Part shown: piece by piece, positions 18,749 to 27,548 of the stretch | How positions within the stretch are numbered: position 1 is the stretch's first letter | How the letters are laid out: every line of letters starts with the position of its first letter | NCBI RefSeq assembly: GCF_000143415.4 | Contig: NW_003314274.1 | Location: forward strand, 1,966,623-2,030,622 | Direction of reading: 5' to 3' | DNA: 64,000 nucleotides | Source: Selaginella moellendorffii | Lineage: Eukaryota; Plantae; Lycopodiophyta | The notes under the pieces: model-generated | Told to the model about the DNA's origin: nothing | The model's database searches: none | Seen by the model: the letters and a program-made list of their open reading frames with translations, nothing else | Program-made: the position numbers and the translations under genes

Positions 18749-20025
18749 CGCTGGAGTCTAGCTTCTACCAGGTAAGCAAATCTTTTCTTTTCTCCTTTTT
18801 TTTTTTCTCCTTCGCTACCTCATAGTCGTCAACGATTTCCTTCTTTTCCCCGATCCAGGAACAGCTACATTGATCCAAATCTCCATCGCTGGCTCTCGCA
18901 ATGCCGAAACTCTGGATCGATCAAGCGAAACACAGAAAAGAATAAGAAGAAGAGAGGTAAGTATTTCTATCCTCGTGGAGGTTTAATATATGTTTTCCTC
19001 CCAGCCAAACGAAGAAACACCAAGAGTGTGATCGCGAGGCGTAGCTCAACAAGGAACTACCACCGATTCCCATAGAACCTGCATTGCCCCCCCATCCCAT
19101 CGTGTGCATCGCTCACAACACAGATAAAATAGAAGAAGCGAACACCACAAGAACGAGAAAACTGGAAGAACGAAAAAAAAACAGAGAGTAAAAGCCGTCG
19201 GATATTCCGGCGATATAAAGCCGTCGGATATTCTGTCTGATCCAGACACGTGACGGGGATATTCTGGTCCGTCAACTTTGGCTGGCCCATGCAAGGAAAT
19301 TCCTGTGTGTGTAAAGGACCATGGGATTAAACATAGAAGATTGGACCAACCAAGTCGAGACACAGCATGCAAGGCCACAGTGTCTTACATGTGTAAGGGG
19401 GAACCAAGAAGCCTGTCATGGGCATTTGCAGTAATTATTTTTTCCTGAGGTTATTTTTCTCGTTTTTCCCTTTGTACGGAGATTGACAGTGGCTTTCGTA
19501 GATCTCCGTCCATTTTACTGCTGATTGGGATTTTCTTGATTTTGCTTTTGGGATTGCGATCGCCTACCAACCGTCCGTTCTTTGATTTTTTACCGACTGT
19601 TGAAAGCGCGAGCGGCGAGGCTCGCTCGCGTTACTCATCACGTACTGGATTTTGAGCTACCCGGGGGTGAATCGTAATGATCTTTTCTAGAATCTCACGT
19701 CGAGGCAAACGTAATTGGCGATTTAGATGTTAGCATGGATGAAATTGTTTTCTTATGGTTTTATTTTCTGTTGGAGAGTGTTTGGTGAAAAATAGCACCG
19801 GACCCACGTGAGAAATCACAAAACAAAGACCACCCAGTCGACCAGCGATCCATCAGTTAGGTTTGCAATTGAGGAGAAACTGGAAGGATTGGGATTGCTT
19901 GCACCCCAAAACCAATCGCGATCTGGGCCCTCTAGATTCGATCAATCGATTGATTTGCCACACTTCCTTGCTAATGCCGAGGGTGATGTCTCATGCCTTT
20001 GACGCCAAGCAACTTAATCGTGTCA

Positions 20026-20200
20026 AGTCAATGCACAGTAGTCAACGCCACCGCAAAGACCAAACACTAAAGTCAACGTCCCCTTTAGAAGTCAACCACC
20101 GTGACGTTTACATTTTCCGTCGGTCAACTCCCTATTCCATGCTGAGCCACATCGGTCAACTAAAGCTAGATTTTTCAGTTAACATTTTGACCATAGTCAA
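20026..20200. promoter_or_regulatory. Cluster of 8 W-box cores (TTGACY) in 175 bp
   Basis: AGTCAA at 20026, 20040, 20071, 20090 and 20195; GGTCAA at 20122 and 20154; TTGACC at 20187. Confidence 0.5.
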
Positions 20201-20224
20201 CGCCGAGGAATTTTTAGAAGCACT

Positions 20225-21555
20225 TCTCCTCTTCTTCCTTGCTGCGCACTGCCTGGGCCGTGCCGCCTCGGCATCGCCCAGCGCCTTGCCCAGCTTCCTC
20301 GTCACGGCCTCATACACCGATTTCTCCTTGCGGGCCATCTCCTCGAGCTTGGCCACCTTGCTCGCCAGCTCCTTGATCTCGTCCTGCTGCCTCACCAGCG
20401 AGCGCCGATCCTCCTTCGACTTCCCGGTCGCCTTCGCGGACGAATCCATCCGGGACGAGGACGAGAACTGGACGTTGATGAAGCTGAACACCTCTGCTTC
20501 CTCCAGTGCTTTGCTCGCGCGTCTCGCCTCGGCAAATTTCCTGTCCCGCTTCCTCTTGTCGCCGCGGGATTTCTTCTTTGCGTGTGGAGTGGACTCGCTC
20601 ACGAAGTCGAGGGATGTCTTTGGTGGCAGGGCTCGGACCCGGAGAGGTGTGAGCCCCTGGCCGCTTGTCCCAAGGCCAGAGCCTTGCTTGTATCCCATCT
20701 TGGCCATGAGCTTGGAACCCACTCCTCTCCAGTTGGCGAACTCCTGTCTGGGTTTGCTGGTATCCTGAGAAAGTCCCGATTCCTGGCAAGATTTCTTCGT
20801 CGTCGCTTGACTCGTCACTGCTGCTGCTGCTGCTAGTGCTTCTCGAATCTGTCACCGCTGCATACTCGCTGAGAGCTAAAGTTTCTTTTTCGACGATCGC
20901 TTTGCTGCCATCGTCGCTGAAAACCACATTCACCACTTGGAGCTGATCCACCAGCTTCTCGACTTCGGCATCACGCCAAAGACCTGTTCCATCGTCGGTG
21001 GAGCTGCAAGCCAGGACTGTAGAGCCGATCTCTATCTCTTGCCATCTTACGCCTGGAACCTGTTAAACGTGTCATGGAAAGTTCTCTCTCATTTTTTTAC
21101 CATGGGAGGAACGACAGCTTTAGCCATATCGGCTGCGCCCCTGGAAGAAGAAGCTGCAAATCTGCACACTCGGCCGGATGTCGTCAGTTTTTCATTCTCA
21201 AAAACCACTAAAACAACGAAAGAACTGGAATACAACATGCATTTTCTCATTTGTTGGCGTCAGAAAAGAAACACGAGCGTTTGTGCCATCTTCCATCAGT
21301 GTGTCGAAAGCGGCGTAACAACAAAGTGCTGCTCTCATTGTTGTTGTTGTTGTTCGTCTTTATTGCAAGCGAGTCATTCTTTCGACGAACCGAACTGGAG
21401 AAGCAGGCGGCGACGCTTGAGAGACAGCAAGCTTTCCTCGACCTCCTCGACCCTCCTCGACAAATCCTCTCGCAGCTACGTTAAGAAAAATACTTCCTGA
21501 TAACGCTCACAAAGATATACTTACCGCCTGATTCCCAGGTTCGTGGAGCACTGTG
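20225..21555 (-). pseudogene. Decayed duplicate of the CCCH/G-patch gene
   Basis: Near-identical to 25871-27450 including introns, but with many small deletions and frameshifts; the 5' end is lost. Confidence 0.93.
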
Positions 21556-21898
21556 GGAGCGACATTCTTACAAGCCGCGACACGAGACGATCCGCGGGAG
21601 AGGCTTCGCAACACCGATGACACGATATCGGCCCCATGGCAGATTGGAGTCCAGCCGATCGAATTGTCCCGCAGTCTCCTCGGGTGTTCGGGCCGCCGCC
21701 TCCCCGCGTGCTCCAGCTGAAGTTCTTGCCAGCGTAGTCATTCTTAAGCTCCGATCAGAAGGAGGCGGGGAGTGTACGAGCACTAAATTCAAAATAAAAC
21801 GTCTTTACAATCATGCGTGGATTTGGAAGACAGACTTTTCATGGAACATATTGAAACTATAATATTTTTAGACTATACCAGTGCTAGAATATTCTGCG

Positions 21899-23535
21899 AT
21901 GACGCGGGTATGGGGGAAAACGGATCCCTTCGCCTTCCCGGCGAGCGAGTTTCACTTCGGTTTGTTGCGAGCCGTGGAGCCTTTCTTACGAGTCCACCGC
22001 ACAACGGCTGCCTCCCAGCTTGGCCCGAACGATAAGTTCAAGGGCGGGCAAATGAACAGGGATGCGCTTGACACATGCCTGCAAGTGATAACTCCTTCCA
22101 TGGTGGATTATGAGAGGTATGCTCCTTTCTTTTGTCACGAGTGTTGCTAAGCTGATATGGTTTTGCTGAGAGAAACGTACAATCCAGGTCCCCCTGCAAA
22201 GGGTTCGGGGCTGGATTGTACCTTCTCAAAGCAAAACCTTGCTTTTCTCTACACAGGAGTTTTAAAGAACCTCGCACGGAGCTCAACGTGCGACCGAGGC
22301 ATCTGGAACTTATCCGCCAAGTGGAGAAGTTCACAAGGCCAACAGAATTGGCATTGTATGAAGATGACGCAGCAATGGCCGAGGAAGTTGGCGATGAAAA
22401 TGAACTTGGTCAGAAGGGCTTCACTATCACGCTGGCGGCTGGAGACGAGGACGACAAGCTGGTCGCCAAAGTTTACAGAGGCAAAGAAGTTGAGGAAGCT
22501 CCTGGTGGCAGCTCGACCGACGATGAAGAGGGGCTTCACATGGATACGGAAGCTGCTCCAGAGGACGTCCCGGACAAGGGTAGGACCGATGCTAGAGTTT
22601 TTGTTTTCAACGAAGGGCCACGCAACCGCGCGGATGAGCTGGAGAAACCTTACTTGTCAGCACAACGTTGTACGCTGGTCGGTGAATTCAAAGACGACGA
22701 GGATTGGAACGCAATCGCTCAAGCTGCAGCATATGCACGAGTAGAAGCACGGCGGAACTTGTCAAGCCGGCACTACAAGCCACGTAAGCGATCTTTGTTA
22801 GCAAATCTCTCCGGAAGCGCCTCATTCTTGCAGTGTATCTCCTGGCGTTCTCAAAGACGAAATTCACATATGCAATCCTGAAACCAGAGGGGTACATCTT
22901 AACAGGAGGAAACAAAGTCACTGATGCTGCATACGCAGGTACGCAGCAGTTTGGTGTGTATCTGTTATCATGAACGAACCACCTCTTTCAGATTTTGTCA
23001 ACACTACAAATCCAGGGAGCACCCCTTGGCCCAAAAAAACGATGGACACCATGCTTGAGGCTGGCATCTCATACCTCCGAAGAAACTACAGTGACAAGAG
23101 AAATCCGAAATACCCCAAGCGTGCTTATGTTGTTGGCGACTTGTTGGTTGCTCCACAGGTGGTCTTCCTTTGGTTGGTTCTGTGCTTGACTGGTAATGGT
23201 ATTGCAATGTGCAGTGGTATACGCTGCCGAGCACCGAGGTCATGGATGGCTTCTTCTCGCCAGACGCCAAGAAGTTCTACGAGGGACTGCTGCGTATCGC
23301 AGTGGGCGACAGGGTGCTCAAATTCACTCCATACCATGTAATGGCGGCTCTGAGTGTGAGGATGGCCATGAGTACCAAGACGAGCGCTTTCCTGGGGGCC
23401 GATTTTTCAAAGGGCTTAGCGGCTATGCAAGGGGCCCGAGCGTTTGAAATTGCTGCCCTTGGTGGGTTTCGTGTCGGGAAGCTCCTACGAGAGACTGTGG
23501 AAGATGGTGACACTAAGAGGCAGCGTCTCATGTAA
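21899..23535 (+). CDS. Spliced gene encoding a putative PD-(D/E)xK restriction-endonuclease-fold protein (at least 445 aa)
   Basis: Exons 21899-22116, 22257-22783, 22834-22938, 22992-23158 and 23215-23535 join in frame through GT-AG introns. Motifs are GRTD (22579-90), LVGEFK (EFK at 22684-92) and AIAQAAAY (Q 22720, Y 22732), followed by hydrophobic strands PLYLLAF..FTYAIL. The gene may extend 5' (exon from 21617) and 3' (donor 23532, TACTAAC branch point, acceptor 23628). Confidence 0.65.
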
Positions 23536-24374
23536 ATCATACAAAATCTAGAGTATCACTGCTTAACTAATACCAATCAAATATCTTCTCCCGCTCCAAA
23601 CAATGTCATCTTTGTACTAACTTTGCAGATTTCCTCAGTATTTTATGCCACCAATCACCAAAGAAGCTAGCGACATCACGAGAAAATCTTCCGAGTTGAA
23701 GCCGGAGCCCATGGTATTCGGCACTTGCATGGTAGGGGAGGCCGGGAACCATTCACAAAAGAAACATCCAGTCCGTAAACATGGTTTGTCTAATATATAT
23801 GAAGTTGTGTTTACAATCTACTTTAGTCTCGAGATTACCAAAGATCTCTATGTTCCTGGCTCGCCATCTTTTGTCCATTTCTAAAGATTATCGGGTGTAG
23901 TTGTTCAGTCAAATGAAAGTGCTGGTTCGGAAGATTCGAACGGTTTTCTTCAAGGAAATGATGCCTGAATATTCAGCCTCCTCTTCGCTGGGAATCTCCA
24001 GCTCCAGATACTTATTGAATTTTAATTTAACTATGTATCCTAGCAGACTAGGGGATCAAAGTCGCCACTTCCTGAGGAACCGCCACCATGGATTCCACCA
24101 CCGCTAGCAGATTTCCCTCAATGTGTAGAGCACAATGCGTCAGAATCTCCAGGTATTTCAAATTCAGAGACTAATATCATAAGTTTTACAGAAGAAGAAG
24201 CAAGCAATGATCTAGATAGAACCAACAGTCCAGGATAAGATCACGCATGAACATTCGAAGACTATTTCTGCTATGTAAAACGGGCTGGTTGCATATGAAG
24301 AATTGCAAGAGCCCGAATAGTACATGGAAACCAACAAGAGACATTTTACAGTATCATGATCACGCCGCTCAGGT

Positions 24375-24895
24375 GAGCCACTAAGTTTACAGGAAGCAAT
24401 GGGAGGATCAAAGAGCTTTCACTGGAAGGCAGCCATGTAGAGTGAGTATAATGCTCAATTTAAAAATGATTCCTGGAGGCTTGTTCCTCACAAGTCTGTA
24501 AGGGCCTGATCGTACAGTGTATGTGGGCCACGGTTGATACCCAAAGGTTGTACTCAATGAGGAGGAGTCAACTACAACGAGATATTTTCACCAGTTGAAG
24601 ATGGTTTCAGTTCGTTATTTTCTTGTTATAGCCAATCATTTAGACTTAGATGCGGACGGTAAGAATGCCTTCCTCAACTGAAAGCTTGATTAACAAGTCT
24701 ATATGCAACAGCCCCCAACATTTAAGAGATCAAAGGAAAAGAACAATACATTTGCATTCTATTTATATTGATTAAAGCAGATCGAGTACAATACTTTGAA
24801 TAAGTTTTTTTCTACACTCTGGTTTTTCTTGAATTGAGGCTGACTGGAATCTCTATTACTACGTCCATGACCAATGATCCTGGTGTGTGTCTAAG
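24375..24895 (+). mobile_element. Ty1/copia reverse transcriptase relic
   Basis: EPLSLQEAM..WKAAM*SEYNAQFKNDSWRLVP, KGCTQ*GGVNYNEIFSPV and KNAFLN*KLD*QVYMQQP are RVT_2 motifs with stops. Confidence 0.85.
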
Positions 24896-25870
24896 TTGAT
24901 CACTTGTTTTGCAGTTCTATAAACTTTCCAGGAAGGATGCACCATTTATCAGAATGTGGTAGGAGTGCTGATTGACTTGACAACTGCGAGCAGGCTAGAT
25001 CTCAGCAGCAGTTTCACGTGTATTCCAGTCCATGTAAAATCTAGGAAACAGACACGTCCAGGAATATTTGCCGGCACAATAGCATCTAAAATATCTGACA
25101 GAATATTCTCACTAGGTCCCATATAGAACATTCATATCTGAAATATTCTAACGAATCTCAACATCAAGATTTATGACCCAGGGAAGTTACCATGAGTAAA
25201 GATTTAATATGGAAATGAATGAAAGTGAATAATTATGAGAAAAAAATGGGAAACAACCTGCAGTCTAGAGAAAAAAATGAATGTTATAGACTTTGTAGCT
25301 TTTGATATGCTCATGATAGACCACAAAAACAATGTTTTTGTCAGAAGGATCAAGTTTGGTGATATAATGCACTACCACATTGTTATGTTTCTTGCTTAAC
25401 TATGATATCTGAGCTCTACTAATCCAGCACAAGAGAAATTCATAGTAGGATTGCATTAGTCAGAAGTTATTTATCATCACAAATGACTTATGCATGCATT
25501 GTAGACCAAAGAGTGGCATTTGAAGAAAGAAAACAAGTGAAAAAGATAATTGGCAATGGATGCAGCTTTGCACCAAAAAATTGACATAGAGGCTTGTGAA
25601 ATATATTACAAAGAGTCTGATTTTGACATTCTGAAATGCCATTTTGCTAGGCAAAGTAGCCTACAAGAATATCATGTCAGAGGCAAACATAATTTTATCA
25701 TTCAAGGATTAAAATGTTTTCTTATGGTTTCTGGAGCATTGGGATTAAAACTTGCGATCTCAAGCGCAAAACATGTCAATTCAGTAGTCACCGCCACCTG
25801 CAAAGATCGAACTTAACAGTCAGCTTTTCAGTCAACATTTTGACCATGGTCAACGCCAAGCATTTTCTCT

Positions 25871-27548
25871 TCAGAACCGCAGCCATTTCTTCTCTTCTTC
25901 CTTGCTGCGCACTGCGTGGGCCGTGGACTGGAGCGCCGCCTCGGCATCGCCCAGCGCCTTGCGGGCCTCGCCCAGCTTCCTCGTCACGGCCTCGAACACC
26001 GATTTCTCCTTGCGGTTCCTGCGCGCCATCTCCTCGAGCTTGGCCACTTTGCTCGCCAGCTCCTTGATCTCGTCCTGCTGCCTCACCAGCGAGCGCCGAT
26101 CATCCTTCGACTTCCCGGTCGCCGCCACCGCTGGTTTCTTCTCCTTCGCGGACGAATCCATCCCGGACGAGGACGAGAGCTGGACGTTGATGAAGCTGAA
26201 CACGTCGGGAGCTCCCTCTGCTTCCTCCAGTGCTTTGCTCGCGCGTCTCTCCTCGGCGAATTTCCTGTCCCGCTTCCTCTTGCCGCCGCGGGACTTCTTC
26301 TTTGCCGACGGCTTGGGTGGAGTGGACTCGCTCACGAAGTCGAGGGATGTCTTTGGTGGCAGGACTCGGACCTGGAGAGGTGTGACGAGCCCCTGGCCGC
26401 TCGTCCCAAGGCCAGAGCCTTGCTTGTATCCCATCTTGGCCATGAGCTTGGAAGCAACTCCTCTGGTATGCTTCTCCCAGTTGGCGAACAACACTGTCTC
26501 GGTTTGCTGGTATCCTGAGAAAGTCCCGATTCCTGGCAAGATTTCTTCGTCGTCGCTTGACTCGTCACTGCTGCTGCTGCTGCTAGTGCTGCTCGAATCT
26601 GTCACCGCTGCGTGCTCGCTGAGAGCTAGATTTTCTTTTCCGACGATCGCTTTGCTGCCATCGTCGCTGAAAACCACATTCACCACTTGGAGCTGATCCA
26701 CCAGCTTCTCGACTTCGGCATCTCGCCAAAGTCCTGTTCCATCGGTGGAGGTGCAAGCCAGGACTGTAGAGCCGATCTCTATCTCTTGCCATCTTACGTC
26801 TGGAAGATCTTTCAGCGACGAGAGCTGTACGAGGAAACCTGTTGAATGTGTCATATCCAAGCTTTCAAGTTTCATAGAAGAAAATGTTCTCTCTCATTTT
26901 TTTTACCATGCGAGGAACGACAGCTTTCGCCATATCGGCAACGCTGCTGGAGGAAGAATCTGCAAATCTGCACACTCGGCCGGATGTCGTTAGTTCCTTA
27001 ATCTCAAAAACGGCACCCATGGGGAAAAACAACGAAAGAGATGGAGTACAACCTGCATTTTCTCATTTGTTGGCGTCAGAAAGGAAACACGAGCGTTTGT
27101 GCCATCTTGGCACAAATCGAGAACTCTTCCATTATACCATCTTCCATCGGTGTGTCGAAAGCGGCATTTTGATCCAGCAACAAAGTGCTGCTCTCGTTGG
27201 TGTTGTTGTTGTTGTTCTTCGTCTTTATCGCAAGCGAGTAAATCTTTCGACGAATCGATCTGGAGAAGCAGGCGGCGACGCTTGAGAGAAAGCAAGCTTT
27301 CCTCGACCTCCTTGACAGCAGCCACAAGATCCTCTCGCAGCTTCAGCATTAAATAGAAAATTACTTCACTATAACTCTTTTCATCGCTCGCAAAGAAGAT
27401 AGGTCGTGCTTACCGACTGGAGCTCCTGATTCCCAGGCTCGCGGAGCAGCGCCTCCTCCAGCGCCGGCAAGGACTCGTTGTGCTCGATCAGCTGCTCCTC
27501 CAGCTCACGCTCCAGCAAGGCGCTCTCCTCTTCCTCCTCTACACCCAT
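25871..27548 (-). CDS. Zinc finger CCCH + Tudor-like + G-patch protein (ZGPAT-like, At2g24830-like)
   Basis: KCRFRHTDGRWYNG, CRFFLQQRCRYGESCRSSH (CCCH), WEKHTRGVASKLMAKMGYKQGSGLG (G-patch) and C-terminal KKWLRF. Confidence 0.93.

Follow-up and report, generated by a model that had tools for sequence, protein, structure and literature searches.

We found that the Selaginella moellendorffii gene SELMODRAFT_410804, whose public product P0001 carries a hypothetical annotation and no Pfam domain, is a spliced gene with a stop-free frame, and that the core of its product is predicted from structure models to adopt an HsdR/type IIG-like PD-(D/E)xK fold. The gene lies at 21899-23535 (+) of the window, which is the whole 64,000-nt stretch of DNA that was analysed, and it belongs to what looks like an uncatalogued family of stand-alone restriction-fold proteins of spikemoss and ferns. 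We put at about even the chance that the protein would be a stand-alone, HsdR-like nuclear DNase of the CR (Crinkler-RHS) REase or Spok type, serving as a defence or conflict gene in its own nucleus. The family is header-less and stand-alone and lies outside Pfam, and its named members come from one lycophyte and two ferns.

Joining the five exons (all on the + strand) gave 1338 nt coding for 445 amino acids and a stop codon with no internal stops, as had been proposed in the preliminary description together with GT-AG introns of 140, 50, 53 and 56 nt. Exon 1 (21899..22116) encodes residues 1-73, with the start codon and an N-terminal strand and helices that form part of the predicted fold. 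Exon 2 (22257..22783; residues 73-249) contains core helix 81-98 with E81 and H88, the acidic insertion, the catalytic-type strands and the QxxxY helix, and matches public SELMODRAFT_410804 at 100%. Exon 3 (22834..22938; residues 249-284) adds further core strands and a long beta-hairpin, exon 4 (22992..23158) encodes residues 284-339, and exon 5 (23215..23535) encodes residues 340-445 and the stop, including the last core helix 355-368 and the helical tail. Residues 1-444 of the spliced product are identical with P0001.

Each of the four GT..AG introns (+) has a joint in public contigs (140, 50 and 56 nt in X1; 50, 53 and 56 nt in X5; 56 nt in X3), so that the RNA check proposed for the junctions came out 4/4; the runs behind these contigs are only guessed to be RNA, and it is the joints themselves that demonstrate splicing. 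Intron 1 (22117..22256, 140 nt) was joined in X1 (record 3, exon 1 to exon 2), and one contig from X9, whose run type is unknown, still contained it. Intron 2 (22784..22833, 50 nt) was joined in X1, X2 and X5. Intron 3 (22939..22991, 53 nt) was joined in X5 and had loose ends in X1, X2 and X3, those in X1 and X2 sitting on contigs identical to the window. Intron 4 (23159..23214, 56 nt) was joined in X1, X3 and X5.

Past the stop codon the contigs continue unspliced to 23582 (X1) and 23591 (X5); this supports the 445-aa form but not the longer tail given in the public model. That model takes extra C-terminal exons from 23600-24810, which is decayed copia-type retrotransposon DNA, and its 78-residue tail was rejected as having no RNA support in the contigs of the public runs. 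No joint from the upstream candidate exon 21617-21773 was seen in public contigs, and the extra exons suggested there and from 23629 onward were accordingly dropped.

The AlphaFold2 model of P0001, built on a 30-sequence alignment, had a pLDDT of 68 with a core of about 90 and with the acidic stretch and the tail disordered; its elements were helix 81-98, strands 185-190 and 209-217, helix 224-242, strands 249-254 and 258-274, and helix 355-368. A second member, P0006, was modelled with pLDDT 80 and pTM 0.81. Structural comparison with 48,161 chains returned the same top five for both models, which are not fully independent because their alignments share most rows. The top two chains in each case were mitoribosomal, 7a5f_s3 and 3j7y_5 (which we take to be mL65 (mS30) and mL37, respectively), with Z 10.7-11.9, rmsd 3.9-5.9 and 218-223 residues aligned; the closest structural matches are thus mitoribosomal proteins, not nucleases. 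BpuSI (Z 9.3/9.5 for the two models), DrdV (8.8/9.0) and V. vulnificus HsdR (7.9/7.6) came next, with alignments covering 119-154 residues at 9-15% identity, and many other restriction-fold proteins ranked below these five.

HsdR (3h1t), BpuSI (3s1s) and DrdV (7lo5) share the predicted core fold, the D..ExK arrangement and QxxxY with the spikemoss protein, whereas the latter is eukaryotic and spliced, has no helicase, methyltransferase or specificity domain, and adds the acidic insertion, the long hairpin and the helical tail. The restriction fold put forward earlier gains support from the two models, with restriction-fold proteins ranked at the top after the two mitoribosomal chains. The structure search suggested as its check succeeded in part: BpuSI, DrdV and HsdR were recovered at Z 7.6-9.5, but Foldseek, run with both predictions against PDB and viral models, matched nothing at E 0.001 or better. 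Language-model neighbours by features in the ESM Atlas were fungal, comprising basidiomycete clusters (0.94-0.95), DUF6826/fungal-kinase-associated clusters (0.93 and 0.91) and an HSDR_N cluster (0.89), while the Atlas structure rows held PDDEXK_12, Crinkler-containing and L37/PDCD9 clusters, all below the Atlas naming bar.

The models changed the domain map in two places. The acidic stretch (residues ~104-181, mostly with pLDDT under 50) had been described as a linker upstream of the core; since the first core helix 81-98 with the invariant E81 precedes it, the stretch interrupts the nuclease domain as an insertion. The structural alignments span residues ~55-372, with the N-terminus aligned within the fold from residue 1-11. 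Because they reach residue ~371, what had been called a C-terminal helical domain is mostly core fold, and only ~378-435 forms a separate helical tail.

Conservation of the candidate catalytic residues was scored in 15 diverse full-length members with a median identity of 23%. The predicted metal-binding 'PD' aspartate D184 (22588..22590, +), just before strand 185-190, was kept in 11 members. At the end of strand 209-217, E216-x-K218 (22684..22692, +) kept its glutamate in 14 members, the other having D, and its lysine in 12, with N at this place in the near-identical copy P0002; Q228-xxx-Y232 (22720..22734, +) on helix 224-242 kept Q in 13 and Y in 13. The acidic residue E81 (22279..22281, +), which opens the first core helix and was overlooked in the preliminary description, occurred in all 15, and H88 in 14. 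All six of E81, D184, E216, K218, Q228 and Y232 were present in 8/15 members, and a ninth had D for E216. The D184, ExK and QxxxY motifs recognised earlier are thus present and conserved across the family, and since they are among the most conserved polar columns at a median identity of 23%, this conservation is beyond chance. The full motif was found in three of the ~9 S. moellendorffii sets of copies (P0001, P0007 and P0011); one set lacked only the tyrosine, and the remaining sets missed one or more core residues. Within the poorly conserved acidic insertion of exon 2, E171 was kept in 13/15 members, 13 residues before D184.

A nuclear-import-like motif, K-R-x-R, with a putative import function lies at residues 440-443 (23515..23526, +). 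The pattern K-(K/R)-x-(K/R) occurred in 16 of 17 family proteins, a count that includes some near-identical pairs, against 8.0 expected by shuffling, and its position varied between the N-terminus, the insertion and the C-terminus. No signal peptide was found, and no 19-residue window exceeded a hydropathy of 1.8. Pfam placed a SAP DNA-binding domain in P0011 and P0015, at the N-terminal header position, while no Crinkler header, kinase or NTPase appeared in Pfam scans of the four closest proteins and 23 more distant ones.

The ranking of the structural matches also allows the reading that the protein acts as a scaffold that binds nucleic acids, or as an enzyme of RNA processing, like mL37/mL65, and not as a DNase, which we consider improbable. 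The mitoribosomal proteins mL37 and mL65 are regarded as inactive structural ribosome subunits. As the two top matches they align with P0001 and P0006 over an N-terminal segment beyond the bacterial core (identity 7-10%), an L37/PDCD9 cluster stands among the Atlas structure rows, and many copies in the family persist despite lost catalytic residues. Against these points, the spikemoss family retains catalytic-type residues among its best conserved columns and is enriched in basic, nuclear-import-like motifs, and Pfam scans gave no match to PF07147 (mL37/mL65). The conserved fold begins at about residue 4, with no N-terminal extension before it, and so leaves no room for a transit peptide. No paper joining mL37 and mL65 with a restriction endonuclease came up in our literature search.

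Relatives were collected by searching a profile of four S. moellendorffii proteins against 1.84 billion representatives at a cut-off of E 0.001. The 24 matches comprised 8 from S. moellendorffii, 3 from Adiantum (two species), 12 unnamed Logan proteins and 1 archaeal protein; the last, P0026, was dropped as an Ig-like protein aligned over the acidic stretch. No seed-plant, bryophyte, fungal or bacterial protein was among the named matches, and since the reach of a four-sequence profile is limited, the taxon pattern is a lead and not a range. Word-indexed searches matched S. moellendorffii proteins only, and weak scans of metagenome, viral and prokaryote contigs (two short patterns each, from a 4-sequence alignment) gave no relative. 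Pfam assigned no nuclease family to SELMODRAFT_410804 or its relatives (the same four closest and 23 more distant proteins), no convincing family came from Pfam, PADLOC, NCBIfam or PHROGs (best, REase_III at E 0.006 in 2/20 and a phage exonuclease at E 0.015 in 2/20), and a sequence search of the PDB gave no real match.

In S. moellendorffii the copies fall into the ~9 sets mentioned above (cluster members included), with 20-55% identity between sets; most sets are near-identical pairs, which are probably the two haplotypes of the assembly. In a quick tree of 32 rows, in which the fern rows are fragments, an Adiantum row stood in each of three clades that also held Selaginella rows, with support of 100 for the SAP-bearing clade (P0019), 95 for the clade of SELMODRAFT_410804 and 81-88 for the third. 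This arrangement would fit subfamilies older than the lycophyte-fern split, or transfer. The best reading of the copies, which lie at unrelated places and have often lost catalytic residues, is a family evolving by birth and death, and intact and degraded copies coexist in it. Residues ~600-975 of P0020 (LOC9641190) are a degraded member within a long PPR gene model, which suggests that it was inserted into a PPR gene or between PPR genes, or that the annotation is fused. In P0016/P0035, a long N-terminal region without a Pfam match (residues 1-485) precedes a degraded nuclease domain; a separate gene model on the same scaffold as P0016, P0034, resembles this region, and the P0016/P0035 model may result from fused annotation.

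Conflict proteins with a restriction fold have been described from oomycetes, fungi and some land plants, and most of them also carry a header together with a kinase or NTPase. The available part of PMC5289972 reports CR proteins with REase domains in land plants, describes Myb-type headers in eudicot CR forms, proposed to target intracellular invasive DNA, and links CR-type REases to transposons. Like the spikemoss protein, CR REases combine a eukaryotic REase-fold domain with a lineage-specific multigene family and nuclear motifs, as far as the available parts of PMC5289972 and PMC6131194 describe them. The spikemoss protein differs in having neither a ubiquitin-like/helical header nor an NTPase/kinase partner, which CR effectors commonly though not always have, nor a Pfam Crinkler match; its N-terminus lies within the fold, where Pfam gave no match. 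In the comparison with the CR-REase family, the Atlas neighbours were DUF6826, fungal-kinase-associated and Crinkler-containing clusters, the structure rows staying below the bar. A Crinkler effector proper, one of the identities raised earlier, is therefore set aside, as the header is absent and the protein is not secreted. The broader suggestion of an undescribed nuclease effector, selfish element or toxin held in part: a conflict nuclease is the best reading and would fit the features above, but the class had already been reported in land plants in the accessible text of PMC5289972. On CR REases in plants our literature search found one paper, fungal in subject; it turned up no paper that joins Selaginella with Crinklers and REases, and none with any of six gene identifiers, and the supplements of Zhang et al. 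2016 could list the genes. Of the other papers, PMC6131194 and PMC12957317 served in excerpt as context only, and the excerpt of PMC3424549 mentions Selaginella only for the RAP domain.

The Spok proteins of Podospora likewise have an HsdR-like PD-(D/E)xK domain with QxxxY and form a dispersed multigene family, according to the parts of PMC6660238 and PMC9972908 available to us. In the former, V. vulnificus HsdR is the best template for SPOK3 and shares its QxxxY; in the latter, killing by SPOK1 requires the nuclease lysine and disrupts DNA. The spikemoss protein, from a plant host, consists of a nuclease domain and a short helical tail, without the coiled coil, the cysteine cluster or the C-terminal kinase resistance domain, and this missing kinase domain argues against Spok identity, which had been mentioned as well. 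A looser relation, in which the nuclease kills unprotected sibling spores or gametophyte cells as part of a Spok-like spore-killer or toxin-antidote system and altered copies might be the antidotes, seems to us a long shot. It draws on the REase subtype shared with SPOK3 (PMC6660238, in part), on the killing by DNA disruption of the related SPOK1 (PMC9972908, in part), on named matches from free-sporing vascular plants only, and on the transcription of intact and altered near-identical copies in the same runs; but neither a kinase resistance domain nor a linked partner gene accompanies the nuclease, the sampling of named proteomes is thin, and 12/24 matches are unnamed.

For the nuclear DNase that we prefer, the following mechanism may be proposed. 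The basic motif would bring the protein into the nucleus, and the SAP domains of some members may tether them to chromatin. D184 and E216, probably with E81, would bind metal, K218 would place the attacking water, and Q228 and Y232 would link DNA binding to cleavage in an HsdR-like manner, so that DNA could be cut in a metal-dependent reaction in the nucleus of the producing cell. Its likeliest task would be to attack DNA that is invading or mobile, or to kill in a cell-autonomous way. The SELMODRAFT_410804 copy lies between G-patch duplicates and is weakly or selectively expressed.

If so, the family is a direct test of whether land plants kept restriction-like nucleases for nuclear defence or for spore-phase genetic conflict, and the same gene occurs naturally in an intact and a lysine-less form, which provides a built-in comparison. 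A wider picture, which we think rather unlikely, would be that ancient restriction-like nucleases are confined to free-sporing vascular plants and were lost in seed plants, that they serve in nuclear immunity or spore killing, with catalytically dead copies in the role of regulators or antidotes, and that they are the active, stand-alone kin of a fold which in animals became fixed as mitoribosomal mL37/mL65.

Expression was assessed in three raw RNA runs (X15, X16 and X17), of which ~12% of each, ~1,382 million letters apiece, was read. Depth on the nuclease-like gene was 0 to 1.3, and the neighbouring G-patch gene reached a depth of ~25 in X17. Contigs covered the nuclease-like gene in X1, X2, X3 and X5, with a high summed depth in X2, contig depth being a poor measure of expression; raw depth and contigs together indicate expression that is low or limited to certain conditions. 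P0002 differs from P0001 at 24/443 positions, K218N included, and the K218N variant was present in a transcript contig, so the P0002 form is transcribed.

Among the coding variants listed, 26 coding differences from a set that mixes accessions with the P0002 form, 19 were nonsynonymous and 7 synonymous (pN/pS ~0.9); in the neighbouring G-patch gene, used as the control, the counts were 7 and 8 (pN/pS 0.27), and the contrast was not significant (Fisher p 0.11). No stop or frameshift occurred among the listed coding variants of the nuclease-like gene, and its coding indels of 12 and 3 nt were both in frame. Relaxed or diversifying selection would account for the ratio at this locus, which makes a conserved housekeeping role of this copy less likely. 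In the preliminary description a dN/dS near 1 and a lack of spliced transcripts had been named together as evidence against a functional gene; the ratio comes near the former, while all 4/4 introns were found joined.

Within a real nuclease family, SELMODRAFT_410804 could then be a decaying recent duplicate, poorly constrained and heading to a pseudogene. We judge this unlikely, although the pN/pS ratio, the K218N change in the second copy, the low RNA depth and the position of the gene between a copia remnant and a G-patch duplicate that is frameshifted and silent all speak for it. The copy in the window retains all six residues and splices its four introns correctly, the listed variants leave the frame open, contig depth was high in one run (X2), and diversifying selection yields the same ratio.

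The window consists of plant DNA dense in genes, whose introns are short; the neighbours are unremarkable and include genes for ELO, cyclophilin, a DEAD helicase, DUF688, G-patch, EFTUD2, a class I tRNA synthetase, PPR-DYW and mismatch repair proteins. The nuclease-like gene occupies ~4.2-4.3 kb between two G-patch gene copies. The upstream duplicate (20172..21551, -) carries a frameshift when compared with the second copy, and at 92% likeness no RNA covered it; the downstream copy (25825..27449, -) is spliced and expressed. Within 23600-24810, the part of the copia-type DNA confirmed by a profile is the decayed reverse transcriptase remnant at 24649..24807 (+) only (Pfam RVT_2, E 4e-05, under the curated cut-off, with stops read as X).

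The gene might also be the endonuclease or an accessory gene of a mobile element that has gone unrecognised, or what is left of it after domestication, with self-propagation as its present or former job; this, too, we hold to be unlikely. SAP domains are found in some transposon proteins, and family copies lie at unrelated places, one between the G-patch duplicates and another (P0020) inside a PPR gene model. The tie of CR-type REases to transposons in the available part of PMC5289972 points the same way. However, the longest inverted match between the flanks (21500-21899 against 23536-25830) was 11 nt, which 29/200 shuffles reached or passed, in a comparison that would miss old, decayed ends; the ~4.3-kb stretch occurs only once in the window; the sets, 20-55% identical, show no recent burst; and no transposase, helicase or RT domain is fused to the nuclease. 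For the transposon-derived origin mentioned earlier, no transposon ends beyond chance level were seen at this locus.

Several minor features were noted along the window. Third-position GC of the nuclease-like gene was 0.57, below 5/6 of the neighbours tested, and Rfam gave no match in 19000-26000. Just upstream of the gene, at 21573-21641, two adjacent 35-nt pieces match unrelated GC-rich contigs (X3, X5 and X9) that diverge from the window on both sides; this segment, with no Rfam, Pfam or plasmid match, is possibly a scrap of organelle or repeat DNA. The segment 5517-6666 has long open frames on either strand, is strongly skewed in GC and AT and has no Pfam match; it is probably a low-complexity coding exon.
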